A stretch of 64,000 nt of DNA from an uncultured Phycisphaeraceae bacterium (GCA_964640595.1 CAZXGL010000019.1:5075-69074), one strand, 5' to 3'; positions 17,204-64,000 are shown, counted from the stretch's first letter. The notes: generated from the sequence alone by a model not told the origin. Program-made: numbers and translations.

Positions 17204-17602
17204 ATGGCGGAAATTACCGTATTGCTGGTCGATGATGAACCTCATGTGACGCATGTGATGTCGCGCGCGGTCAAAGCCGCCGGCATGGAAGTTCTGACAG
17301 CCGAGGACGGGGAAGAGGCTTATGAACTCGCCTCCGAGCATCGGCCGCAACTGATCGTGACCGATCTCCAGATGCCGTACATGAGCGGGATCGACCTGGC
17401 GGAAAAACTGAACGGGAACAACGAGCTGTGCCGGATCCCGCTGATCCTGCTGTCAGCCCGCGGCTATGTGGTGGAACGAGAAGCCAAGGATCTTTCGAAC
17501 ATCCGCCTGGTGATCGAGAAACCGTTCAGCGCGCGGGATGTGGTGTCCAGAATCCAGGAGCTGCTGGCCTGCGAGGGGCCGGGGCTGAGGCAGTCCGCGT
17601 GA
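17204..17602 (+). CDS. single-domain CheY-like response regulator
   Basis: MAEITVLLVDDEPHV...LIVTDLQMPYMSGIDL...IEKPF. The ATG is internal to track ORF 16562..17602. Confidence 0.85.
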   Translation: MAEITVLLVDDEPHVTHVMSRAVKAAGMEVLTAEDGEEAYELASEHRPQLIVTDLQMPYMSGIDLAEKLNGNNELCRIPLILLSARGYVVEREAKDLSNIRLVIEKPFSARDVVSRIQELLACEGPGLRQSA

Positions 17603-19203
17603 GCGCCACCATTAAGCCCAAGACCAGGCCGACCGTGCCGCCGGCGTTCGTGGAGCGTTGCACCCAGCTCGGGCTGATCACCTGGCGGCTGGACCCGAAC
17701 GGAATGCCGGTCGAGGACGCGAGCGCAAGCGACCTGCTGGCGCTGTGGATGAGTTCCAAACCATTCCGCTCGATGCTGACGGAACTGGCATCGGTGTGGA
17801 GCGCCCAGCAGACGCTGTCGGCCGCCAACCCGCTGCCCGGGCTGTGGGTCTACCCGTTCGAGGAACTGCACCGGCGGAGGCGGACGGGCTACTTCATCGC
17901 CATCGGATTCGGCCCCGAGATCCTGGACTCGAGCCTGCTCGAACCCGGTTGCGTGGGAGGCTCGCTGCAACTGGCTGCGGTCAAGCACGCGCTGCACCAT
18001 TACGCCGTGCTGAGCGACCGCGAGGCACAGAGGGTCGGTCGGCTCATCGGATGGATGCACGAGGATCTGAGTGGTTACTTCCGATCGGCTGAGGTCATCG
18101 ATGGTTTCACCGCCCAGCTTGCATCCGCGTATGAATCGGTGACCATGCTGTGCGAGCTTGGGCGTGCAATGGGATCGATCAACGAGCCGGGCTCGTTCGT
18201 GCGGACCACGGGTGAGCAGATCGCGTCGACACTGATGTATCGCTGGGTTGGCATCGCACTGAACGATGCAAAGACCATCTATCAGGTCGGACCTGAACGG
18301 CTGACTGACGAAATGGCGCATGCCACCATGGCGCGGATGGCCAACGAAGCCCCGGCCGCGTCTGCGGGGACCACAGAGATCTACCACATCCATGACCCGA
18401 ACTCCCCACTCGCGCCGCAGCTTGTGGCGCACCCCATCGAACGGGGCGGGCGTCGGTTCGGAGTGCTGCTTGCGGGCGGAAAAATGGGCGATGACGCGCA
18501 GGTCTCGACCTACGAAACCAAGTCCATCGAGTCGGTGTGCGGCCTGCTCGGCGCCTTCCTGGAGAACGCCGACCTGTACGCCGAGCAACGGCTGAGCTTC
18601 CTCGGAACGATCCGGGCGATGTCCGGCGCGCTGGATGCCAAGGACCGGTACACCCGCGGCCATTCGGACCGTGTCGCGCACCTCAGCGCGGAGATCGCAC
18701 GGGTGCTCGGCTTCAGCCCCGAAGAGATCGAGCGGGTCCGGATCGCCGGCATCGTGCATGATGTGGGCAAGATCGGCGTGCCCGAGAGCGTGCTCTGCAA
18801 ACCCGGGCGGCTGACCGATGAGGAGTTTGAGAAAATCAAGGAGCACCCCGAAATCGGCTACAGGATCCTCGAAGGAATTCCGGGCTTGCAGGATATTCTA
18901 CCAGGCGTGCTCCATCACCACGAGCGGTATGACGGACGCGGGTATCCCCACGGCCTGGAGGCCGACGGGATCCCGCTCCTGGCGCGAATCATCGGCGTTG
19001 CGGACACCTTTGACGCGATGAGTTCAAACAGGGCTTACCGTTCGAAGATGTCACGCGATGTGGTGCTCGCGGAGGTCGCCAAGTGCTCCGGAACACAGTT
19101 CGACCCACGGGTTGCCGTGGCGTTCCTAAGCGTGGACCTGTCCGAGTACGACCGCATGGTTGAGAATCACGCGGCGCAGGACCCGCTGCGGCAGGCCGCC
19201 TGA
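17599..19203 (+). CDS. GAF-like sensor plus HD-GYP domain c-di-GMP phosphodiesterase
   Basis: HD-GYP core HSDRVAHL...IVHDVGKIGVP...HHHERYDGRGYPHGL...VADTFDAM. GTG 17599 overlaps the receiver gene stop (GTGA). Confidence 0.85.
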   Translation: MSATIKPKTRPTVPPAFVERCTQLGLITWRLDPNGMPVEDASASDLLALWMSSKPFRSMLTELASVWSAQQTLSAANPLPGLWVYPFEELHRRRRTGYFIAIGFGPEILDSSLLEPGCVGGSLQLAAVKHALHHYAVLSDREAQRVGRLIGWMHEDLSGYFRSAEVIDGFTAQLASAYESVTMLCELGRAMGSINEPGSFVRTTGEQIASTLMYRWVGIALNDAKTIYQVGPERLTDEMAHATMARMANEAPAASAGTTEIYHIHDPNSPLAPQLVAHPIERGGRRFGVLLAGGKMGDDAQVSTYETKSIESVCGLLGAFLENADLYAEQRLSFLGTIRAMSGALDAKDRYTRGHSDRVAHLSAEIARVLGFSPEEIERVRIAGIVHDVGKIGVPESVLCKPGRLTDEEFEKIKEHPEIGYRILEGIPGLQDILPGVLHHHERYDGRGYPHGLEADGIPLLARIIGVADTFDAMSSNRAYRSKMSRDVVLAEVAKCSGTQFDPRVAVAFLSVDLSEYDRMVENHAAQDPLRQAA

Positions 19204-29048: not shown

Positions 29049-30887
29049 TCAGGCCGCACGCTGCTGGCGGGACTGCTCCGATCCCGGGAGCGTGAGGGTG
29101 AAGGTACTGCCCTGGTCCAGCTTGGACTCGACCTCGATATCGCCACCGTGCAGGCGGGCGATCTCCCGCGCCAGCGCCAGGCCCAGGCCGGACCCCGTGA
29201 CATGGGCGATGCGTCGGTCGTTGGCCCGGTAGAAGCGATCGAAGATCCGCTCGCACTCCTCGGGATCGATCCCGATGCCCGTGTCGATCACATGCACGAC
29301 CAATCCACCCTGCTCCGGCACCTCGACCCGGACCGTGACCTTTCCGCCGGGCGGTGTGTACTTGAGGGCGTTGCCCACCAGATTGTGCAGGGCCTGCCCC
29401 AGCCGATCGCGGTCGGCATGGATCACGGGCATCTTCGGCGGGATATCGAACATCAGTTCGATGGACTTTTCCGTCGCCTGGGCGACATAGTCATTGGTCA
29501 GGTCGTCGAACAGTGCATCCGTACGGACATCGCCCGGTCGGATCGACAGCGAGCCCGCCTCGATCTCGGACACGGAGAGCATGTCGGCCACGATCCGCTC
29601 CAGACGCCTCGCCTCGGAGTTGATGACATTGAGTGCCTGCGCACGGAGCTGAGGATCGGCCTCCCCCTCATCCACCGCCTGTTCGACATACAGACGGATG
29701 TTGGTCAACGGGGTACGCAGTTCGTGCGTCGCCTGCGCAACGAACGAGTTGCGAGACCGATCGGCCACCCGCTGCTGGGTGATATCCTCGATCAGAACAC
29801 CAACGAACCGCTCACCGCCGACCTCGGTGGATCGAACGGACAGACGCAGTTCCGCGTCGGGATCACGCCCGGGCTCGCCGCGGGCGACCTCGACCGTACG
29901 GCGGACCGGGGTGCGGCTGTCCAGGCACTCCGCAACCGCATCCCGGACGGTTTCGTCAGTGAAAGCGGTCGTAAACTCAACCCGTTCCAGCTCGGCCTTG
30001 TGTCGTCCGAGCAGCACCCCAGCCGCGCCGTTGACATAGGTGATATGGCGATCATGCCCGATGGCGACCACGCCGTGCGTCAGTGAGTCACAGATGGCGA
30101 TCACCCCACCGTTCTCACCGGGAATCGTTTGCTCCGCCAGCGTGACCTGATGCTCCGCGATCACCCGATCCTGCCGATCGCGTTCATCCAGGAGCATGTT
30201 CCACGCCGTACCCAGCGGGTCGGAATCCTCGGCCACGCGGAGAACCTGCGCACGCCGCTCACCCTTGGCCGCCTCGGATAGAGCTGTGCCAACGCCCACC
30301 AAGGCCGCCAGCCGCTTTCGGAAGCCCCGGAAAACGAGCCAAACGGCCCCCACCGCGATCAAGGCAATCCCACCCGCCTGAGCGGTCGTCGCGGCGTAAG
30401 GAGGCGTCACCGGGTCGTACGACACCTCGACCACCCCGGCACCTCGTCCTGGCACCTCAAATGTCACCCAGACAGATTGGTTCGAAACCTCGGGCGTCGC
30501 CGGCGTCGTGGACCAGATTGGCGGGATCGAGAGCACCCCGATGTTCTGAGCATCGGTTGAGGCGACCACCCCCACTCCCGCGAGTGTGACCTTGCAGGAC
30601 CGGACCAGACCCGAGCCTTGCAGGTCGATCATCTGGCGACGCACCGCGGCCAGGTCCGACTCACGGAGCAGCAGGTCCGTCCGAGCCGCGACCAGGCTCG
30701 CCACGCCCGTGGCGGACCGTACCCGTTCGTCCTGCGTCTCACTGGCCGCGGCTCGGGCCGACCACCAGGACGACAGCATGACCGCTCCGACGAGCAGCAC
30801 GGCCACGCCGCCCACCAGGCCGGAAACCCAACGGGAGACACCAGCCTCGGAGAAGCCCGCAATGAGTCTGTTGAATCGTTCGTGCAT
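29049..30887 (-). CDS. membrane sensor histidine kinase (periplasmic sensor, PAS, HisKA, HATPase)
   Basis: H-box FVAQATHELRTPLTNI; HNLVGNALKYTP; DTGIGI; GSGLGLALA. I use ATG 30887 (MHERFNRLIAG...) because the longer track ORF runs over tRNA-Tyr. Confidence 0.85.
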   Translation of the reverse strand: MHERFNRLIAGFSEAGVSRWVSGLVGGVAVLLVGAVMLSSWWSARAAASETQDERVRSATGVASLVAARTDLLLRESDLAAVRRQMIDLQGSGLVRSCKVTLAGVGVVASTDAQNIGVLSIPPIWSTTPATPEVSNQSVWVTFEVPGRGAGVVEVSYDPVTPPYAATTAQAGGIALIAVGAVWLVFRGFRKRLAALVGVGTALSEAAKGERRAQVLRVAEDSDPLGTAWNMLLDERDRQDRVIAEHQVTLAEQTIPGENGGVIAICDSLTHGVVAIGHDRHITYVNGAAGVLLGRHKAELERVEFTTAFTDETVRDAVAECLDSRTPVRRTVEVARGEPGRDPDAELRLSVRSTEVGGERFVGVLIEDITQQRVADRSRNSFVAQATHELRTPLTNIRLYVEQAVDEGEADPQLRAQALNVINSEARRLERIVADMLSVSEIEAGSLSIRPGDVRTDALFDDLTNDYVAQATEKSIELMFDIPPKMPVIHADRDRLGQALHNLVGNALKYTPPGGKVTVRVEVPEQGGLVVHVIDTGIGIDPEECERIFDRFYRANDRRIAHVTGSGLGLALAREIARLHGGDIEVESKLDQGSTFTLTLPGSEQSRQQRAA

Positions 30888-30989
30888 GGTTCCGATCTCC
30901 GGACCGGACACGGGTCCGTCGGGATCGGCTATCGGTCGGCCAGAGGAACCTCTCCAGCCCGCCTCGGAAATCCGGCCGGTTCTCGGACG

Positions 30990-31012
30990 AAAAAACCCCC
31001 CTTGACGGGGGG
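30990..31012 (-). terminator. rho-independent terminator after tRNA-Tyr
   Basis: Minus strand reads CCCCCC-gtcaa-GGGGGG followed by TTTTTT. Confidence 0.7.
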
Positions 31013-31017
31013 TTAAG

Positions 31018-31100
31018 TGGGCGCGGCTGGATTCGAACCAGCGAAGGCGTACGCCAGCAGATTTACAGTCTGCCCCCTTTGGCCACTTGGGTACACGCCC
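31018..31100 (-). tRNA. tRNA-Tyr (anticodon GUA), long variable arm
   Basis: Reverse complement is GGGCGTGTACCCAAGTGGCCAAAGGGGGCAGACTGTAAATCTGCTGGCGTACGCCTTCGCTGGTTCGAATCCAGCCGCGCCCA. Anticodon loop CTGTAAA. Confidence 0.85.
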
Positions 31101-31109
31101 GGAGGGTTT

Positions 31110-31127
31110 CCCGGGCCGCGGCCCGGG
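31110..31127. repeat. perfect 18-bp GC palindrome in the tRNA-Thr/tRNA-Tyr spacer
   Basis: CCCGGGCCGCGGCCCGGG, immediately 5' of tRNA-Tyr on the transcribed strand. Confidence 0.6.
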
Positions 31128-31243
31128 CTGGAACCATATCCCGAACTCCGCTTCCCGGCAAACCAATCTCGACCATGTTCCGCACGGAATGCCTGAAGAT
31201 GGGGAGGTGGGTAGGAGAGTTCATACGAATCAGAAAACCGAAA

Positions 31244-31316
31244 AGCCGCCTGCGAGACTCGAACTCGCGACCTGCAGATTACAAATCAGCCGCTCTACCA
31301 ACTGAGCTAAGGCGGC
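31244..31316 (-). tRNA. tRNA-Thr (anticodon UGU)
   Basis: Reverse complement is GCCGCCTTAGCTCAGTTGGTAGAGCGGCTGATTTGTAATCTGCAGGTCGCGAGTTCGAGTCTCGCAGGCGGCT. Anticodon loop TTTGTAA. One U-U mismatch in the anticodon stem. Confidence 0.8.
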
Positions 31317-31356: not shown

Positions 31357-31430
31357 TGGGCGATGGCAGGCTCGAACTGCCGACCTCCAGTGTGTCATAC
31401 TGGCGCGCTAGCCAACTGCGCCAATCGCCC
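31357..31430 (-). tRNA. tRNA-Val (anticodon GAC)
   Basis: Reverse complement is GGGCGATTGGCGCAGTTGGCTAGCGCGCCAGTATGACACACTGGAGGTCGGCAGTTCGAGCCTGCCATCGCCCA. Anticodon loop ATGACAC. Confidence 0.8.
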
Positions 31431-55733: not shown

Positions 55734-56899
55734 CAGTTCCCCAGCCCCACAATGTTGTCTTCCCACGCCATTTTGCGCAGGCGGATGATGTCCGCCTCGG
55801 TTGTCGCGGCCTGCCCGAGCACCTGAGCAATGTGCTCGATCGACTCCGTGCCGAAGAGTCCGTTCGGACCGGCGCTGACGATGGCATAGCGGGCCGAACG
55901 GAGTTCGACGCTGCCGGCGGTCAGGTCGATGTCCCGCGCGTCCGCACTGCCGTCGGCATTCCGGACACGGGCGTAGACCTCGGGATTGATAAGCACGGGG
56001 GGGATGTTCAGGTCCAGGCTGTTCTGGACCACCAGACGCCCATTCACCAGACGGCCCGGCTCCCAACGGTAATAGCGGAACGCGCGTCCCCACGGATCGA
56101 CGAAGGCCGCGTGCGAATCAGGCACCGTGTCCGCGGCGGGCATCGTGGCGTTGTGCTCCGCATAGTCGGCGCGGTGCTGATACCCGGTCACGAGACGCAA
56201 GGACTGACGATTGGTATCGATCACCGGCTCATAGCGGTCACGGGGGGTTCCCACCCGGGCCGCACGGAGCAGCACGCCCTCAAACTGGCCGTTGAAGAGC
56301 GGACGGGACATGCCCGGCCCCTCGACGCCGTCCACCGCACGCCCGCCGATGCCGCTGAGGTAATAGGGCAGCGAGAACTTGCTGTAGCGACGATCCTCCC
56401 ACGCGGACGCGATGTTCCAGGCCGTGCCAGCAGGCAGGCGGACCGCATCCGTCCCGGGACCAACGCGGCGGCGGATGAAGTTGCCGTAGCTGTTGTAGCT
56501 ATTGATGGTGCCGTCCGACTCGGACCACACCGCGAGCTGATCGACCGACAACCCCCCCACACTCCGACGCACCACGGGCCAACCCGCCTGCGAGCCAACC
56601 GCGGGAAGCCCCTCCGGCGCGTATCCGTCGGAGGCCATGGCCTGTCCATCATGGATCAGCGGCGGCAGGAAACCAAACTCGGCCTTGAACTGATCGACCC
56701 CCGTGACCAGCGCCCCCACCGCCCGCTCGCCCACCGAGGCGCGGGCCTTGCCCACGCTGCGGGCCAAACCCGCGAGCAGCAAACCTGCGATGACCAGGAT
56801 CACCGCGAGCACAACCAGCAGCTCGATCAGCGTGAAACCCGTCCGGGTCGCGGGGCGGTTCCGAGTTGTCTGAGCGGCTGATTGCACGCCGTCATCCAT
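55733..56899 (-). CDS. large (388 aa) GspG-like (major?) pseudopilin
   Basis: RTGFTLIELLVVLAVILVIAGLLLAGLARSVGKAR...VDQFKAEFGFLPP is GspG-like at the N-terminus. I use ATG 56899; the track start at 56938 is TTG. Confidence 0.7.
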   Translation of the reverse strand: MDDGVQSAAQTTRNRPATRTGFTLIELLVVLAVILVIAGLLLAGLARSVGKARASVGERAVGALVTGVDQFKAEFGFLPPLIHDGQAMASDGYAPEGLPAVGSQAGWPVVRRSVGGLSVDQLAVWSESDGTINSYNSYGNFIRRRVGPGTDAVRLPAGTAWNIASAWEDRRYSKFSLPYYLSGIGGRAVDGVEGPGMSRPLFNGQFEGVLLRAARVGTPRDRYEPVIDTNRQSLRLVTGYQHRADYAEHNATMPAADTVPDSHAAFVDPWGRAFRYYRWEPGRLVNGRLVVQNSLDLNIPPVLINPEVYARVRNADGSADARDIDLTAGSVELRSARYAIVSAGPNGLFGTESIEHIAQVLGQAATTEADIIRLRKMAWEDNIVGLGN

Positions 56900-56942
56900 C
56901 CTTTCAGATTCGCTTGTGCAGTGGGAAAGACAACACAAGGAA

Positions 56943-58235
56943 CTACTGGAGCGACTCGATCATCTTGACCATGGGGAGGAACATCGCCACGACGATGGTG
57001 CCCACCATGCCGCCCAGCACGACGACCATGAGGGGTTCGAGCAGCGACACAAGCGACTCGACCGCGACATCGACCTCTTCGTCGTAGTTGTCGGCGATCT
57101 TCATGAGCATGGCATCCATGTCGCCGGTCTCCTCACCAACATCGATCATGTTGACCACGATGGCGTCGCAGGTCTTGGACTCGCGCAGCGGGCCCGCGAA
57201 GCTCTCGCCCTCGCGGATCGAGTCGTGGACTTTCTTGAGAGCCTTCTCGTAGACATAGTTGCCCGAGGTTTCGGCGGTGATCGTGACCGCTTCGAGGATG
57301 GGCACGCCCGCACCGATGAGGGTGCCCAGCGTCCGGGTGAAGCGGGCAATGGTCGTCTTGCGGATCAGCTTGCCGAAGATGGGGGTCCAGAGCAGCAGCA
57401 CATCGATGGCTGCCCGACCCGGAGGGGTCTTTCGGAGCAGCTTGTATGCGATCGGGATGGCAATGAGGATGCCGACAACCGTCACCGCGCCCTGACCCAT
57501 GAACTGGCCCGGCTGGGTTCCGGCCATCCAGGACGAAGTCTCCATGAGCCACAGCGTCAGGCCGGGCAGCTCGACCTCGAAGTCCTTGAAGATATCGGTG
57601 AACTTCGGGATGATGAACACCATGATGAAGGTCAGGATGATCACCGCGATCAGGATGACCACAACCGGGTACACCATCGCGCCCTTGATCTTGCGCTTCA
57701 GGCGTTCGCTCTTCTCCATGAACTCGGCAAGACGCTGGAGGATCAGGTCCAGCACGCCGCCGATCTCACCGGCGTTGACCATCTTCACATAGAGATGGTT
57801 GAAGGCCTTCGGGAACTTGCCCATGGATTCGGAGAGCGAGCTGCCGCCCTCGACTTCCTCGGACACACCCATCAGCACGGACTTCATCTTGCCCGGCTTC
57901 TGCTGGCTCTCAAGGATCTGCAACGAGCGCAGCAGCGGCAGGCCGGCGTCCTGCAGGGTGGAGAGCTGGCGGGTGAACAGGGTCAAGGCCTTTGGCTTGA
58001 CGCGACCGAAGCTCATGCCGCCGCCGGCCTTCTTCTTCTTGGACTTCTTGGCTCCGGTGGCCGCCTCGGCGGCCCCCTTGCCCTTGGACTTCTTCTCCTT
58101 GACCGGCTGGACCGAGGTCGGGAAGTAGCCCTGGGCCTTGATCCGCTGCAGCGCTTCCTCGCTGCTGGCGGCCTCGATCGTGCCCTTCTGGGTCTTGCCC
58201 GAGGCGTTCAAAGCCTGGTAGGAATAGGTCGCCAT
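56943..58235 (-). CDS. pilC: type IV pilus / T2SS platform protein (PilC/GspF family), second copy
   Basis: MATYSYQALNASGKTQKGTIEA...FTRQLSTLQDAGLPLLRSL...MVNAGEIGG. It has a Lys-rich insert after the first 45 aa. Confidence 0.9.
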   Translation of the reverse strand: MATYSYQALNASGKTQKGTIEAASSEEALQRIKAQGYFPTSVQPVKEKKSKGKGAAEAATGAKKSKKKKAGGGMSFGRVKPKALTLFTRQLSTLQDAGLPLLRSLQILESQQKPGKMKSVLMGVSEEVEGGSSLSESMGKFPKAFNHLYVKMVNAGEIGGVLDLILQRLAEFMEKSERLKRKIKGAMVYPVVVILIAVIILTFIMVFIIPKFTDIFKDFEVELPGLTLWLMETSSWMAGTQPGQFMGQGAVTVVGILIAIPIAYKLLRKTPPGRAAIDVLLLWTPIFGKLIRKTTIARFTRTLGTLIGAGVPILEAVTITAETSGNYVYEKALKKVHDSIREGESFAGPLRESKTCDAIVVNMIDVGEETGDMDAMLMKIADNYDEEVDVAVESLVSLLEPLMVVVLGGMVGTIVVAMFLPMVKMIESLQ

Positions 58236-58293
58236 CGCACACTCCTCGCGGTCGCCTCACCGGGCGACCGATGCCGAACAGGTCATCGCCGGA

Positions 58294-60024
58294 TCACTCT
58301 TCCGCCAAGGTTTCACGGACGACCTCGTCGATGGTCGTCATGCCTTCGTAGATCGCCAACAGGCCGCACTCACGCAGGCTGCGCATGCCCTTGCGTCGGG
58401 ATGCGGCCCGGAGCACGGCCGTGCTCGCTTCTTTCATCACCAGCTCACGCAGCTCGTCGTCCATCCGCATGATCTCAAACAACGCCATGCGGCCCTTGTA
58501 CCCGCCGCCCACACCGGCTCCGGATGCCGGGCGGTAGAACTGGCGTCCCTTGATATCCGCGGCGGAGAGGTCAAGCTCCATCAGCTCCTGCTCGCTCGGG
58601 ATATAGGCTTCCTTGGTCTGCTGGTTCAGCGTGCGGACAAGCCGCTGGGCCACGATTCCCTCAAGCGTCGCGGTCAGCAGGAATGGCTCAACGCCCAAGT
58701 CCACGAGACGAATGATCGAACTCGGCGCGTCGTTGGTGTGCAGCGTGGAGAGCACCAAGTGGCCCGTCAACGATGCCTGCACGGCGATCTGCGCGGTCTC
58801 AAGGTCGCGGATCTCACCGACCAGAATTACATCGGGATCCTGGCGCAGGAAGGACCGCAGCGCCTTCGCAAAGGTCAGACCGGCTTCCGGATTCACCTGC
58901 ACCTGGCAGAGCCCGTCGATGTCATACTCGACCGGATCCTCGGCGGTGAGAATTTTGGTCTCGATGCGGTTGAGTTCCGCCAGCGCCGCATACAGCGTCG
59001 TCGTCTTGCCCGAGCCTGTCGGCCCGGTCACGATCACGATGCCGTTGGGCTTCTCGATCAGCGCATGGAACCTCTCCAGGTCATCCGGACGGAAACCGAC
59101 ACGATCAAGCGACAGCTCGACATTGCCCCGGTCGAGCACACGCATCACGCACGACTCGCCGTAGATGGTCGGCAGGATGGCCACGCGGAGGTCAACCGGG
59201 TTCCCCCCCACCGTCAGCTCGATACGCCCGTCCTGCGGCAGACGACGCTCGGCAATGTCCAGGTTGGCCATGACCTTCACGCGGCTGGTGATCGCCGGAC
59301 CCAGGTGCTTCGGTGGCGGCACCATCTCGTACAGCACGCCGTCGATGCGATACCGCATCTTGAACTCGTTCTCGAACGGCTCGAAGTGAACATCGGACGC
59401 CCGGTCCTTGATGGCCTGGAGCAGCACCAGGTTGAGCAGCCGGATGACCTGGTTATCGTCCGCCGCCTCAAGCACCGCGTCCAGGTCGATGGACTGGTCG
59501 CTCATCCCCCCCAGATTCTTGAGCTTCTCGTTGCCGGCCAACGCCCCCACCACATCCGCCATCGACTCCTCTTTGGAGTAGTGCTTGGCGATCAGGGCAT
59601 CGATGGCATCCGACGGGGCCACCACGGCATCCACCTTGGCACCCAACAGCAGCCGGAGATCGTCGACCGCCTGGAACTTGGTTGGATCCTTGATCGCCAC
59701 CCGGAGGTGCTTGCGGGCCGGATCCCACTTGATCGGAACGACCTGATAAGCCCGGGCGTTCTCGGACGGGATCGCCGCCAGCGTCTCATCCGGAATTGTC
59801 ATTTTGGACAGCTCGATGAACTCCATCCCAGCCTGTCCAGCCAGGGCCTTGTCTACATCCTTCTTGGTGCAAAATCCCAACTCGACCAGCAGCACACCCA
59901 GAAGCACCTTCTGGGTGCGTCCCTTCTGAACTTGCAAGGCCTCGTGGACCTGCTCGCGTGTTACCACGCCAAGCTTGGTCAGCACACGACCGATCTTGCG
60001 ACCCTTGAGTTCAGCGACATCCAT
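58294..60024 (-). CDS. pilB: PilB/GspE-family assembly ATPase with MshEN-like N-terminus
   Basis: ATG 60024 with AGGAG RBS. Walker A GPTGSGKTTT, and GEIRDLETAQIAVQASLTGHLVLSTLHTNDA. Confidence 0.9.
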   Translation of the reverse strand: MDVAELKGRKIGRVLTKLGVVTREQVHEALQVQKGRTQKVLLGVLLVELGFCTKKDVDKALAGQAGMEFIELSKMTIPDETLAAIPSENARAYQVVPIKWDPARKHLRVAIKDPTKFQAVDDLRLLLGAKVDAVVAPSDAIDALIAKHYSKEESMADVVGALAGNEKLKNLGGMSDQSIDLDAVLEAADDNQVIRLLNLVLLQAIKDRASDVHFEPFENEFKMRYRIDGVLYEMVPPPKHLGPAITSRVKVMANLDIAERRLPQDGRIELTVGGNPVDLRVAILPTIYGESCVMRVLDRGNVELSLDRVGFRPDDLERFHALIEKPNGIVIVTGPTGSGKTTTLYAALAELNRIETKILTAEDPVEYDIDGLCQVQVNPEAGLTFAKALRSFLRQDPDVILVGEIRDLETAQIAVQASLTGHLVLSTLHTNDAPSSIIRLVDLGVEPFLLTATLEGIVAQRLVRTLNQQTKEAYIPSEQELMELDLSAADIKGRQFYRPASGAGVGGGYKGRMALFEIMRMDDELRELVMKEASTAVLRAASRRKGMRSLRECGLLAIYEGMTTIDEVVRETLAEE

Positions 60025-60202
60025 CGAACGCTCCTGACGCAGCCCGACCCATGGCCGAACCACAAGATATCCGCAGTTCGCCCCCGCCGGTTCTGGAGGG
60101 GAGCCCAAAGAAACGCATTCCAACGATGCGACACGCGGCAAATCGATCAACTGCGAGGTCGCAAGCCGCAGTCCACCCCCTCAGGACCACCCCGCACACC
60201 CT

Positions 60203-61327
60203 TTAGTTGATGTCCTTGGAAGCCTCAGGATCATCCAACTCAGGACGCCCGATCACCCCGCCCGCCTGATGGACACGCGTCCGGAGATCACCCGGGTTCT
60301 TGCACTTGTCGATCATCTCTTCCGCCGAGATCATGCCCCGGCTGTAGAGCGACCAGAGGTGGTCATCCAGCAACTGCATGCCGTACTTCTTGCCTGTCTG
60401 GATGGCCGAGTCGATTCGGAACGACTTGTTGTCACGGATCAGGTTCGCGATGGCGGGGGTTACCACCAGGAACTCATACGCCGCCACCATGCCCTTGGTG
60501 TCAATCCGACCCATCAGCACCTGGGACAACACCGCAATCAGGGCCGTCGAAAGCTGGACCCGGATCTGGTTCTGCTGGCTCACGGGGAAGGCGTCCACCA
60601 GACGGTCAATGGTCTTGGCAGCACCCGTCGTGTGGAGGGTTCCGAACACCAAGTGGCCGGTTTCCGCCGCTCGGACTGCCGCCTCGATCGTCTCGAGGTC
60701 GCGCATCTCACCGACCAGAATTACATCAGGGTCCTGTCGCAGGGCTCGACGCAGGGCCTCGGCGAAGCTGGGCACATCGTTGCCCACCTCACGCTGGTTC
60801 ACGACGGATTTCTTATGGGCATGGTAATACTCGATGGGGTCTTCCATCGTGATGATGTGCCGGTCGAAGTGCATGTTGACATAGTCAATCATGGTGGCCA
60901 GCGAGGTCGTCTTTCCTGAGCCGGTTGGCCCGGTGATCAGGAAAAGCCCGCGGGGACGCCGGATCAGGTCCCGGCACATCTCCGGGAGACCGATCTGCTC
61001 AAAGGTCAGCAGGCGGTTGGGGATCTGACGGAGGACGATGGCCAAGTCGCCCTTCTGGCGGAAGACCGACACACGGAAGCGGGCCGCTTCGCCGTAGGCG
61101 AAACCGAAGTCGGTGCCGCCCTCTTCCTGGAGTTCCTGCTGGTTGCGTTCCGGCGTGATGGCCTTCATGAGCGAGACCATGTCATCCGAATCGAGCACCT
61201 TGGTCTGTAGGTTGCGCAGTCCGCCGTGGAGTCGGATGGTGGGCTGCCGCCCCACCGTCAGGTGAAGGTCGGACCCGCCGGTCTTGACCACGGTGTCGAG
61301 CAAACGGTCGATCTGAACGGTGGACAT
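60203..61327 (-). CDS. pilT: twitching-motility retraction ATPase PilT
   Basis: Sequence includes GSDLHLTVGRQPTIRLHG...GPTGSGKTTSLA...GEMRDLETI...TGHLVFGTLHTT...AIANLIRDNK. Confidence 0.92.
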   Translation of the reverse strand: MSTVQIDRLLDTVVKTGGSDLHLTVGRQPTIRLHGGLRNLQTKVLDSDDMVSLMKAITPERNQQELQEEGGTDFGFAYGEAARFRVSVFRQKGDLAIVLRQIPNRLLTFEQIGLPEMCRDLIRRPRGLFLITGPTGSGKTTSLATMIDYVNMHFDRHIITMEDPIEYYHAHKKSVVNQREVGNDVPSFAEALRRALRQDPDVILVGEMRDLETIEAAVRAAETGHLVFGTLHTTGAAKTIDRLVDAFPVSQQNQIRVQLSTALIAVLSQVLMGRIDTKGMVAAYEFLVVTPAIANLIRDNKSFRIDSAIQTGKKYGMQLLDDHLWSLYSRGMISAEEMIDKCKNPGDLRTRVHQAGGVIGRPELDDPEASKDIN

Positions 61328-61396
61328 CTCGTGTCTCTCCCGGGGGTGCGATCTGGTACTGGAGAACTTGGTTCGTTCTTGAGGGGATATGCCGAA

Positions 61397-63112
61397 CTAG
61401 TGTCCGCCATCGGACTGGCTGACACGCGCGATCTCTTCAGGGGTGGTCGAGCCATTGAGCACCTTGAGGCGTCCATCCTCGAACAGCGGACGCATACCGG
61501 AACTCAAAGCGGCCTTGCGGAGTTCAGCCGCGGGTGCCAGCTTGAACGCAAGCTCGCGGAGTTCCGCGTTCATCAGCATCATCTCGAAGATGCCCTTGCG
61601 CCCCTTATACCCGCCCGGCGCGGCTTCACAAGGCACGGCCTTGTACACCTTGCCCAGCGCATCCTGGACTTTCAGGTTGATGAGCGAGAGGTACTTGGGG
61701 TCCAACTCTTCCTCGGTCGCCAGCTTTTTGGAGGGGTCATACAGAATCCGGATCAACCGCTGGGCCATCACCGCCTGGATCGACGATGCGACCAGGAACG
61801 GCTTGATGCCCATATCGATCAGGCGGGTGATCGCGCTCGGCGCATCGTTGGTGTGCAGCGTCGAGAACACCAGGTGGCCAGTCAGCGCGGCCTGGATGGC
61901 GATCTCACCCACCTCACGGTCGCGGATTTCGCCCACCAGGATGATGTTCGGCGCCTGACGCAGCATCGAACGCAGGATGGCCGGGAAGGTCAGCCCGATG
62001 CCCTCACGGACCTGGCACTGGTTGATCCCGTCGAAGTTGTATTCGACCGGATCCTCGGCCGTGATGATCTTGCGGTCGGGCCGGTTGAGCACATCCAACG
62101 CGGAATACAGCGTGGTCGTCTTGCCCGAGCCGGTCGGCCCGGTCACCAGGAAAATGCCGTTGGGTCGCTTGATGATGCGGTTGAAGATATCCAGGTTGTC
62201 CTGCTCGAAGCCGAGATTCACAAGGCCGATGCGGACGGCATCCGGACGGAGGATACGGAGCACCACCGACTCGCCGTGATACGCCGGGCAGGCCGACACA
62301 CGGTAATCGATCTGCGTGCCGCCAACGGGAATCTTGATGCGTCCGTCCTGCGGGATGCGCTTCTCGGCGATGTTCATGCCCGCCATCAGCTTGATGCGGG
62401 AGAGGACGGAGTTCTGCATCCGCTTGGGCAGACTGTCGCGCTCCACGCACACACCATCGATGCGGTAGCGCAGACGAACCCGATCGCCCATCGGCTCAAT
62501 GTGGATATCGCTGACCCGCATCCCCACCGCTTCCTCAAGGATGCGGTTGCACAGCTTGACGATCGGCGAGTCCTCGCTCGACACATCGATGGACTTGTCC
62601 ATCGAACGGTCCACCGAGCGGTCGATTGACCGGTCGATCGAGTCGGTGACCAGGGACTCCTTCGGTGCCCCACCGGGCCCGGCCCCCGGGCCCTCGATAA
62701 AGGCGCGGATCTGGCTCTTGGGAGCGATCCTCGGCTCAATATCCATATTGAGCCGGAACCGCAGATTGTCCATCAGCTCCAGGTCCATCGGATCGTGGAT
62801 GATCAGACGCATCTTGCCCCCGGCCTTGCCCAGCGGCAACACCAGGAACTTCTTGATGATCCCCTCATCCAGGGACTTGCGATCGATCTGGTCCTTCACG
62901 CCCGGAGCGTCGAGATCGACATACTCCAGGCCGTACTGCTCGGCCAGAGCCTTGGCGACCTGCTTCTCAGACGCCAGACCAAGCTCCATGGCGGCCTCGC
63001 CGATCCGCTTGCCCGTCTGCTTGCCATGCTTGAGGGCGCGGTCCGCCTGCTCGGCGTTCATCACGCCGGAACTGACGAGGATCTGGCCCAACTTCTTCCG
63101 GGTTCTCGCCAT
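61397..63112 (-). CDS. PilB/GspE-family ATPase, additional paralogue, MshEN-like N-terminus
   Basis: ATG 63112 (MARTRKKLGQILVSSGV...) with GGAGGA RBS. Walker A GPTGSGKTTT, and GEIRDREVGEIAIQAALTGHLVFSTLHTNDA. The longer track ORF is an Arg/Gly/Pro-rich extension. Confidence 0.9.
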   Translation of the reverse strand: MARTRKKLGQILVSSGVMNAEQADRALKHGKQTGKRIGEAAMELGLASEKQVAKALAEQYGLEYVDLDAPGVKDQIDRKSLDEGIIKKFLVLPLGKAGGKMRLIIHDPMDLELMDNLRFRLNMDIEPRIAPKSQIRAFIEGPGAGPGGAPKESLVTDSIDRSIDRSVDRSMDKSIDVSSEDSPIVKLCNRILEEAVGMRVSDIHIEPMGDRVRLRYRIDGVCVERDSLPKRMQNSVLSRIKLMAGMNIAEKRIPQDGRIKIPVGGTQIDYRVSACPAYHGESVVLRILRPDAVRIGLVNLGFEQDNLDIFNRIIKRPNGIFLVTGPTGSGKTTTLYSALDVLNRPDRKIITAEDPVEYNFDGINQCQVREGIGLTFPAILRSMLRQAPNIILVGEIRDREVGEIAIQAALTGHLVFSTLHTNDAPSAITRLIDMGIKPFLVASSIQAVMAQRLIRILYDPSKKLATEEELDPKYLSLINLKVQDALGKVYKAVPCEAAPGGYKGRKGIFEMMLMNAELRELAFKLAPAAELRKAALSSGMRPLFEDGRLKVLNGSTTPEEIARVSQSDGGH

Positions 63113-63360
63113 CCGGGGCGATCCTCCAAGGGGGGAAGGGAACTTCAAGGCTGCCCAAGCGAACGGCCGAGGCATCGGAGACGGCCGATCCGAAAAACGG
63201 TCCGGGGCCGACATGGTAGGGTCGGGTCGGGTCCGGGTCGTCGCGGGCGAGTCCCCACGGGCGCACAATGCCCGTCCCACCCCCCACCCCCCATACGATT
63301 CACGCCCGACCCCTGTTCCCCGGTGCCACACCACACCGAACCACAAAGCCAGGACACCCC

Positions 63361-64000
63361 GTGCCCCACGCTTCAACAAATCTTCGCCTGCTCATCACCG
63401 CGGGTCCGACCTACGAGCCGATCGACGCGGTCCGCTTCATCGGGAATCGCTCTTCCGGGCGACTCGGCTCGTCCCTCGCGGACGAGGCCGCCGAACGAGG
63501 ATGGATGGTGACGCTCCTCCTCGGCCCCAACGCGGTCACGCCAAACAATCCGCGTGTCCGTCTGATCCGCTTCCAATCCACGGCCGACCTTCAGTCCCGA
63601 CTCACGGAGTTCCTGCCCGCCTGTGATGTCCTCATCATGGCAGCCGCCGTTGCGGATTACCGCCCAACCGCCGAGGAAATCGACCCCCTTGGCAAACGCC
63701 GACGCACCCAGGAAGGGATGACGCTGCGTCTCGAGGCCACCCCCGACCTTTTATCTGGGTGTTCTTCCCAGGCAAGGCCGGACCAACTCCTCGTGGGGTT
63801 CGCCTTGGAACCCGCAGCGCAACTGATGGAATCCGCCCGGGCGAAACTTGCCCGGAAGTCCATCGACCTCATCGTCGCCAATCCTCTTGAGACGATGGAC
63901 AGCCCGAACATCCGAGCGTGGCTGCTCGGCAATCCGAACCGTGGCATCCCGCTGGAGGTTTCCACGGGGAACCCCATCCCAAAGGACCGCTTTGCGGCCT
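63361..64000 (+). CDS. coaB: phosphopantothenate-cysteine ligase (stand-alone CoaB domain), 3' end off window
   Basis: Not in the track because it stays open to the window end. GTG 63361, then LRLLITAGPTYEPIDAVRFIGNRSSGRLGSSLADEA...IMAAAVADYRP...LVGFALE, which is the DFP/CoaB signature. There is no room upstream for a CoaC domain. Confidence 0.7.
   Translation, partial: MPHASTNLRLLITAGPTYEPIDAVRFIGNRSSGRLGSSLADEAAERGWMVTLLLGPNAVTPNNPRVRLIRFQSTADLQSRLTEFLPACDVLIMAAAVADYRPTAEEIDPLGKRRRTQEGMTLRLEATPDLLSGCSSQARPDQLLVGFALEPAAQLMESARAKLARKSIDLIVANPLETMDSPNIRAWLLGNPNRGIPLEVSTGNPIPKDRFAA

Follow-up and report, generated by a model that had tools for sequence, protein, structure and literature searches.

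Two PilB-type extension ATPases with MshEN-type sensor domains in one pilus motor block of an uncultured Phycisphaeraceae bacterium

How the extension motors of type IV pili are chosen and gated is an open question. A 2024 review asks what purpose multiple PilB homologues serve, and the one example that it cites of a pilus driven by two extension ATPases, PilB and TfpB of Acinetobacter baylyi, is also the only such pair to have been studied (PMC11656802). Here we analyzed 64,000 nucleotides of DNA from an uncultured Phycisphaeraceae bacterium (the window; contig C19:5075-69074 of a 3.28-Mb assembly with 76 contigs and 95% completeness), in which one gene block, locus B, carries two PilB/GspE-type ATPases (PilB1 and PilB2), the retraction ATPase PilT and the platform protein PilC. 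Do two extension motors serve one platform, and do both respond to cyclic di-GMP (c-di-GMP)? We find that a receptor of known type is here part of a type IVa pilus motor cluster whose layout is a conserved but so far undescribed variant, and c-di-GMP binding by the PilBs of the window is predicted from their sequences. A full-text literature search returned no paper on Planctomycetota PilB pairs, on this arrangement in the Planctomycetota–Verrucomicrobiota–Chlamydiota (PVC) group or on Planctomycetota pilus regulation. The nearest PilB homologues belong to metagenome-assembled genomes (MAGs) of Phycisphaerales, Phycisphaeraceae or Planctomycetota, many of them from marine surveys.

The PilB2-PilT-PilB1-PilC block and its N-terminal sensors

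Locus B consists of four co-oriented open reading frames (ORFs) on the minus strand at 56943-63112, in the order PilB2-PilT-PilB1-PilC (Table 1). The initial annotation had described a PilB-PilT-PilB block with PilC, all on one strand, and ORF and domain searches confirmed both the block and its boundaries. Pfam assigned T2SSE together with ‘MshEN’ (C-subdomain) to PilB1, PilB2 and a third PilB-like ATPase at locus A of the window, and T2SSE alone to PilT; the latter scored 446.5 bits against the PilT/PilU model TIGR01420 (cut-off 319.1) and has no N-terminal T2SSE_N domain. The Shine-Dalgarno-like sequences GGAGGA and AGGAG precede ATG 63112 of PilB2 and ATG 60024 of PilB1, respectively, and the starts of PilB orthologues coincide with the same Met; the longer TTG-initiated frames are therefore not the genes. 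PilB1, PilB2 and the locus A ATPase have a full set of catalytic boxes (Walker A, Asp box, Walker B and His box), and these are also intact across both PilB clades described below.

All three ATPases are closer to the solved type IVa pilus PilBs (Geobacter, Myxococcus and Thermus PilF) than to GspE, the best solved relative of PilB1 being Geobacter PilB (527 bits). Solved GspEs score ~80-130 bits below solved PilBs, and assignment of any of the three to the type II secretion ATPase GspE was rejected on this basis. None passes the PilB equivalog model TIGR02538 (611.1 bits for PilB1, 555.9 for PilB2 and 574.2 for locus A; cut-off 675.65), and all three are also under the NCBIfam cut-off for GspE. 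Scores against the TfpB model NF053534 were 442.5, 398.0 and 456.2 bits, respectively; these lie far under its cut-off of 850, which excludes PilB1 or PilB2 as a TfpB orthologue.

Table 1 Positions of the features discussed, counted from the first nucleotide of the window
Feature	Position	Strand	Description
PilB2	61397-63112	-	571 aa; first extension-type ATPase, upstream of pilT; T2SSE 402 bits
PilB2 MshEN_N motif pair	62936-63094	-	Residues 7-30 and 36-59: KLGQILVSSGVMNAEQADRALKHG / KQTGK / RIGEAAMELGLASEKQVAKALAEQ
PilB2 inter-domain linker (sensor to N2)	62573-62644	-	S-[IVM]-D-[RK] repeats, DSIDRSIDRSVDRSMDKSIDVSS
PilT retraction ATPase	60203-61327	-	374 aa; TIGR01420 and T2SSE
pilT-pilB1 spacer	60025-60202	-	178 nt; TGTCGCATCG box and weak hairpin
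PilB1	58294-60024	-	576 aa; second extension-type ATPase, directly upstream of pilC; T2SSE 441 bits
PilB1 MshEN_N motif pair	59833-59997	-	Residues 10-33 and 41-64: KIGRVLTKLGVVTREQVHEALQVQ / KGRTQKV / LLGVLLVELGFCTKKDVDKALAGQ
PilC platform protein	56943-58235	-	430 aa; two T2SSF domains, 217.7 bits
Locus A PilB-like ATPase	26788-28698	-	636 aa from GTG 28698; T2SSE 439 bits; tetracysteine motif present
Locus A MshEN_N motif pair	28381-28539	-	Residues 54-77 and 83-106: MVGEVLLSEGHISEDQLSRVLADQ / RTSGM / KLGELLVEQGMISGATLVQSLAKC
HD-GYP-type (HD_5) domain in ORF 17428-19203	18619-19113	+	PF13487 137.4 bits, C19:23693-24187; candidate c-di-GMP phosphodiesterase

In the MshEN domain, the consensus RLGxx(L/V/I)(L/V/I)xxG(L/V/I)(L/V/I)xxxxLxxxLxxQ occurs twice, separated by 5 residues; stacking on the guanines involves the first residue together with the Leu residues, and contacts to ribose and phosphate come from Gln (Wang et al. 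2016, PMC5013675). A study of Thermus PilF widens position 1 to R/K/L (PMC11731258). Binding of c-di-GMP through this domain is established for Vibrio cholerae MshE, Clostridium perfringens PilB2, Myxococcus xanthus PilB and Thermus PilF (PMC5013675, PMC11731258; reviewed in PMC11656802). The three ATPases of the window all pass NF053729 (c-di-GMP_motif, MshE-related), an NCBIfam model of 53 positions with a cut-off of 38 bits, scoring 38.5-41.2 (PilB1), 51.3-54.1 (PilB2) and 57.6 bits (locus A), and the model also matches all sampled homologues of PilB1 (30/30) and PilB2 (30/30) at E <= 0.001. In a six-frame search of the whole 3.28-Mb genome, only these three places exceeded the cut-off. The motif is thus not a chance match, and the N-termini are of the MshEN type, as had been proposed, and more than generic T2SSE_N domains. 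The further claim that all GspE/PilB paralogues carry the motif holds for the three in the window and not for the genome, in which full-length GspE/PilB-type ATPases number six; those encoded elsewhere, on contigs C3, C4 and C5, showed no match to NF053729. The 24-residue repeats that had been quoted are present as given, except that the PilB2 pair ends at 63094, one codon short of the 63097 assigned to it. Only one of the six motifs of the window ATPases satisfies the published relaxed regular expression. Motif I of the PilB at locus L104 (Myxococcaceae) does not satisfy it either, and this protein is closely related to M. xanthus PilB, a reported binder; we therefore regard the expression as too strict to decide binding.

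AlphaFold2 models of residues 1-150, built from 29 homologues each, reached a predicted local distance difference test score of 81.9 for PilB1 and 84.2 for PilB2. Both show four N-terminal helices followed by a helix/strand subdomain. Foldseek searches against the PDB placed c-di-GMP-bound MshE (5HTL) and PilF GSPII-B (8PDK-type) on top for both N-termini, with template modelling (TM) scores of 0.68-0.79 and a probability of 1.00; the best match of the PilB2 model was 5HTL (TM 0.73-0.79).

The two sensors differ in their ligand-contacting residues. In PilB1, all key positions (1, 2, 3, 17, 21 and 24 of both motifs) are present, with conservative I/V for L. Its start residues, K10 in motif I and L41 in motif II, correspond to K167 and L196 of PilF GSPII-B, and the HMMER match line of PilB1 against PilF 164-276 has identical “k.g” and “llg”. 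GSPII-B, with Lys in motif I and Leu in motif II, binds c-di-GMP with a dissociation constant (Kd) of 6 nM, and a change to Arg weakens binding (PMC11731258). The 7-residue spacer of PilB1 aligns without gaps to PilF 303-358, that is, GSPII-C, a c-di-GMP binder whose Kd is about 460 nM (PMC11731258), and to Geobacter PilB. Conservation was assessed at 40 loci, drawn from the order and the phylum, which yielded 34 orthologues of PilB1 and 41 of PilB2. The ligand-contacting positions of PilB1 (both Gly, both Gln and the Leu/Val pairs) are kept at 91-100%, with G12 and G43 in 34/34 orthologues, Q33 in 33, Q64 in 31, L30 in 33 and L61 in 32. Among the 120 nearest homologue clusters, Gln is present in all 117 that could be scored. 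This conservation marks PilB1 as the motor whose sensor is under clear constraint.

PilB2 has a canonical motif II, the Gln of which (Q59) is kept in 35 of the 41 orthologues. Its motif I ends in G30 at the place of the terminal Gln and has Ala at position 17, which is equivalent to the guanine-contacting Leu25. Among the orthologues the last residue of motif I is Ala in 22, Gln in 12 and Gly in 4; the sampled Phycisphaerales orthologues end the motif in A, G, T or S, never Q, and the close homologues (115 scorable among the 120 nearest clusters) in A (75), G (33) or S (7), with no Q. Judging from these counts, PilB2 has lost the motif I Gln throughout its own lineage. Direct c-di-GMP gating of both filament systems had been predicted; equal gating of the two motors is unlikely, since PilB2 lacks the motif I Gln and one guanine-contacting Leu and the key positions of PilB1 are complete. 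The S-[IVM]-D-[RK] linker of PilB2 is nearly invariant in close homologues, with 3-4 repeats in 14/41 PilB2 orthologues; the orthologue comparison found no such repeats in PilB1.

Spread and age of the twin-motor block

Among 20 loci sampled across the order, 17 show PilB2-PilT-PilB1-PilC. In a set of 20 from the phylum as a whole, 13 have PilB2-PilT-PilB1, and another three have PilB2-PilB1-PilC without a PilT between. A scan of named genomes added the block in Planctomycetaceae, Pirellulales, Opitutia/Opitutales (Verrucomicrobiota), one Omnitrophota MAG and one unclassified MAG, and found a single PilB-PilT-PilC set in Myxococcota, Acidobacteriota, Actinomycetota, Gemmatimonadota and others. 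The distribution indicates that the twin-motor block is ancestral across Planctomycetota. The initial annotation had called two extension motors for one platform unusual, which is true in comparison with model organisms and does not extend to this lineage, where the block is common in Planctomycetota and is shared with Verrucomicrobiota and Omnitrophota.

Trees of 81 and 140 sequences (LG+G4; Shimodaira–Hasegawa-like approximate likelihood ratio test, SH-aLRT) included E. coli K-12 GspE and HofB and named MAG loci as references; best BLAST hits supplied the clade labels, and rooting relied on E. coli GspE. PilB1 and PilB2 fall into separate clades with SH-aLRT values of 99-100 and 98-99, respectively, and on these trees the two are sister clades of old origin. 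Apart from both lies a clade that holds the lone PilBs found in Myxococcota and Acidobacteriota. Because each of the two clades holds Planctomycetota as well as Verrucomicrobiota and is tied to its own operon position, we conclude that the duplication is old, predates the split of the two phyla and was followed by maintained linkage.

Neither PilB1 (0 Cys) nor PilB2 (1 Cys) carries the tetracysteine zinc motif (CxxC...CxxC), which is missing from both PilBs in the genus of the window (loci L029-L032) and in a second genus of the same family (g22; locus L052). Both PilBs of all other evaluable orthologues in the phylum keep it, as do the locus A, C3, C4 and C5 paralogues of the genome; among the 120 nearest homologue clusters it occurs in 0/117 for PilB2 and 10/120 for PilB1. 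The pattern looks as if PilB1 and PilB2 lost the zinc motif jointly on one branch, although this amounts to one event only; such joint loss is easier to explain if the two proteins work together.

Proposed action of the motor pair

Each of the nearest known systems shares part of this design. V. cholerae MshE (5HTL, PMC5013675), whose structure is the top match of both modelled N-termini, has the same tandem 24-residue motifs at the N-terminus of a PilB-class extension ATPase; it differs in that both of its motifs start with Arg, where we find K/L (PilB1), K/R (PilB2) and M/K (locus A), in the longer spacer of PilB1 and the missing motif I Gln of PilB2, and in being one such ATPase, whereas locus B has two in one operon. 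Thermus PilF resembles PilB1 in its Lys/Leu starts (GSPII-B) and spacer length (GSPII-C), but carries three sensor domains on one polypeptide, where locus B has one domain on each of two paralogous motors, and has the tetracysteine motif that PilB1 and PilB2 lack. The pilB-pilT-pilC clusters of M. xanthus and Geobacter, the sources of the best matches among solved structures, contain the same families in the same order, with a single PilB from the clade apart from PVC PilB1 and PilB2. In A. baylyi, two phylogenetically distinct extension ATPases, PilB and TfpB, are required for one type IVa pilus (Ellison et al. 2021, PMC8213720). No other experimental precedent exists for such an arrangement; tfpB is not syntenic with pilC, whereas both PilBs lie inside the pilT-pilC operon here, and no c-di-GMP link is given for TfpB (PMC8213720). 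The N-terminus of Xanthomonas citri PilB, solved with PilZ and FimX (7LKO, PMC8389850), has the same fold as the PilB2 model; c-di-GMP acts there indirectly via FimX and PilZ, whereas the window proteins keep the direct-binding motif at the level of the hidden Markov model.

From gene order, domains, motif scores, conservation, predicted folds and phylogeny, we infer ligand binding, its effect on extension and the shared platform, and we propose a plausible mechanism for locus B. As a whole, we consider it moderately probable that PilB1 is gated by c-di-GMP, that PilB2 is a second motor with a weakened or repurposed sensor and that PilT retracts, all on the adjacent PilC. Locus B would be an operon for the motor part of a retractile machine resembling type IVa pili, with two catalytically intact extension ATPases, PilT and PilC. 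PilB1 is taken as its c-di-GMP-gated extension motor, probably of high affinity, because its site is complete and of the Lys/Leu type that reaches 6 nM in PilF GSPII-B. GGDEF cyclases would raise c-di-GMP, the ligand would bind the N-terminal four-helix bundle of PilB1, and extension would be favored, as in V. cholerae MshE. PilB2, with one intact and one degraded half-site, would probably bind weakly or not at all; it most likely acts as a second extension motor on the same platform under different regulation, in a division of labor with PilB1 that would resemble the one proposed for A. baylyi TfpB and PilB, namely initiation versus processivity. PilT would retract the filament, and all motors would act on the adjacent PilC.

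Several observations weigh against this mechanism. PilB1 is barely above the NF053729 cut-off (38.5 versus 38), and three hydrophobic positions of its motifs are occupied by Thr, Cys and Val. C. perfringens PilB2 binds c-di-GMP with no change in its ATPase rate in vitro (PMC11656802). The fit of the PilB2 model to the X. citri PilB-N/PilZ complex 7LKO (TM 0.72-0.76) is nearly as good as that to 5HTL, and the Pseudomonas and Xanthomonas PilB N-termini, which share the fold, bind PilZ instead of c-di-GMP. Verrucomicrobiota orthologues of both PilBs (L074, L075, L079, L081, L096 and L128) have no recognizable MshEN motif; they lost the motif but kept the pair, and the twin-motor design is therefore independent of c-di-GMP sensing. 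Finally, the genome encodes five platform proteins, including that of a PilT-PilC pair on contig C13, and PilB2 could therefore serve another platform; set against the six PilB/GspE ATPases, however, this count is not decisive as a test for a platform of its own.

That neither PilB binds c-di-GMP directly, the N-terminal domains docking instead onto PilM, PilC, the stator or a PilZ-type adaptor and any c-di-GMP control being indirect, would fit the 7LKO match, the 4-5 PilZ proteins of the genome and the Verrucomicrobiota orthologues that retain the domain and not the motif. We nevertheless consider it improbable, given that the dedicated model NF053729 is passed and that conservation in PilB1 falls precisely on the residues that contact the ligand. 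A two-step pilus response to rising c-di-GMP, in which both motors bind the ligand but differ widely in affinity, is somewhat easier to entertain, although still unlikely. Both proteins pass NF053729, PilB2 with the higher score, and motif II of PilB2 is fully canonical and conserved. A Q190E change in motif I of PilF GSPII-B lowers binding to about 500 nM and does not abolish it (PMC11731258), and the reported binder M. xanthus PilB (PMC11656802) has a close relative, the L104 PilB, whose motif I fails the published expression too. However, the motif I Gln of PilB2 is gone from every close homologue scored, Ala replaces a guanine-contacting Leu in PilB2 of the window as well, and PilF GSPII-A, in which one motif is good and the other degenerate, shows no binding (PMC11731258).

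The shared platform is questioned if PilB2 drives another filament or secretion system whose platform lies elsewhere and stands beside pilT for co-regulation only. Platform genes without a neighboring PilB-type ATPase do exist, at C13:64622-65599, next to the second PilT, and at C5:97301-98260, and the length and conservation of the pilT-pilB1 spacer suggest two transcription units. Set against this, linkage of PilB2, usually PilT, PilB1 and PilC has held across at least three phyla, and the tetracysteine motif, retained by the four other paralogues, disappeared from both PilBs on a single branch, so that separate machines seem to us a poor explanation with little chance of being right. The opposite extreme goes beyond the mechanism that we favor: the PVC pilus might use an obligate, long co-evolved pair of extension motors, with PilB2 as a half-blind initiator or scaffold, possibly in a complex or mixed hexamer with PilB1 on one PilC, and the joint loss of the zinc motif would reflect this coupling. 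We regard this extension as speculative and rather doubtful.

Taken alone, the c-di-GMP motif is nothing out of the ordinary for a PilB-class ATPase. An operon-encoded PilB pair with differing sensors, found in three PVC phyla, is a natural system in which to ask what a second motor does and whether c-di-GMP selects between motors, and it would provide a first handle on surface-attachment signalling in Planctomycetota.

Spacers, signalling genes and further paralogues

Among the intergenic gaps of locus B, the one between pilT and pilB1 is the longest (178 nt, versus 69 nt for pilB2-pilT and 58 nt for pilB1-pilC); in relatives it measures about 180-580 nt and the pilB2-pilT gap 40-135 nt. In an alignment of this spacer, the TGTCGCATCG box is kept in 5/6 relatives from the genus and family, with GAACCG and TGCGGATAT further along, and a weak hairpin lies at 60130-60114. 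The box may be an internal promoter or a regulator site. A sigma-70 promoter scan of 56800-64000 gave no sites, and terminator-like sites were at chance level. The Rfam search found nothing credible in 59900-63500 and only five tRNAs in the whole window; on this basis we rejected the idea that the spacers hold a c-di-GMP riboswitch or another RNA of a known family. Downstream of the block are four N_methyl pilin-like ORFs and one ORF of 2042 amino acids. PilC itself has a Lys-rich low-complexity insert, KEKKSKGKGAAEAATGAKKSKKKKAGGG (residues 46-77, nucleotides 58005-58100), between its N-terminus and the first T2SSF domain.

Profile searches of the genome matched 5 GGDEF, 5 HD_5 (HD-GYP-type, one of them in the window) and the 4-5 PilZ domains mentioned above, and no EAL domain. 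By this domain content, the genome can make and degrade c-di-GMP. One GGDEF match, at C6:80900-81403, lies ~3 kb from a 186-aa frame (C6:77476-78036, outside the window) that has a near-canonical motif I, RLGDLLVAQRCITPDQRDEILRVQ, at its start; the NF053729 score of this frame, 30.8 bits, is below the cut-off, and its product may be a stand-alone MshEN-like protein. A Ser/Thr-kinase-like frame at C2:139551-141197, also outside the window, has a weak MshEN-like double helix pair before its kinase domain (18.4 bits, well below the cut-off). On C13, likewise outside the window, a second PilT-like ATPase adjoins a second PilC-like platform at 64622-66909, with no PilB-type ATPase alongside.

The GTG start of the locus A ATPase has AGGAG in front and overlaps the upstream stop codon. 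Its motif I has M at position 1 and H at position 11, and motif II has C at position 24; its orthologues have canonical motifs with RIG, KLG or RLG starts. The clade of this ATPase is narrow, with 5 of 61 genomes of the phylum matching at E <= 1e-150. Three tRNA genes are also encoded on the minus strand of the window (31018-31100, 31244-31316 and 31357-31430). The first overlaps the 5′ end of a long TTG-initiated frame at 29049-31166, and the histidine-kinase gene therefore starts further downstream than that frame implies.

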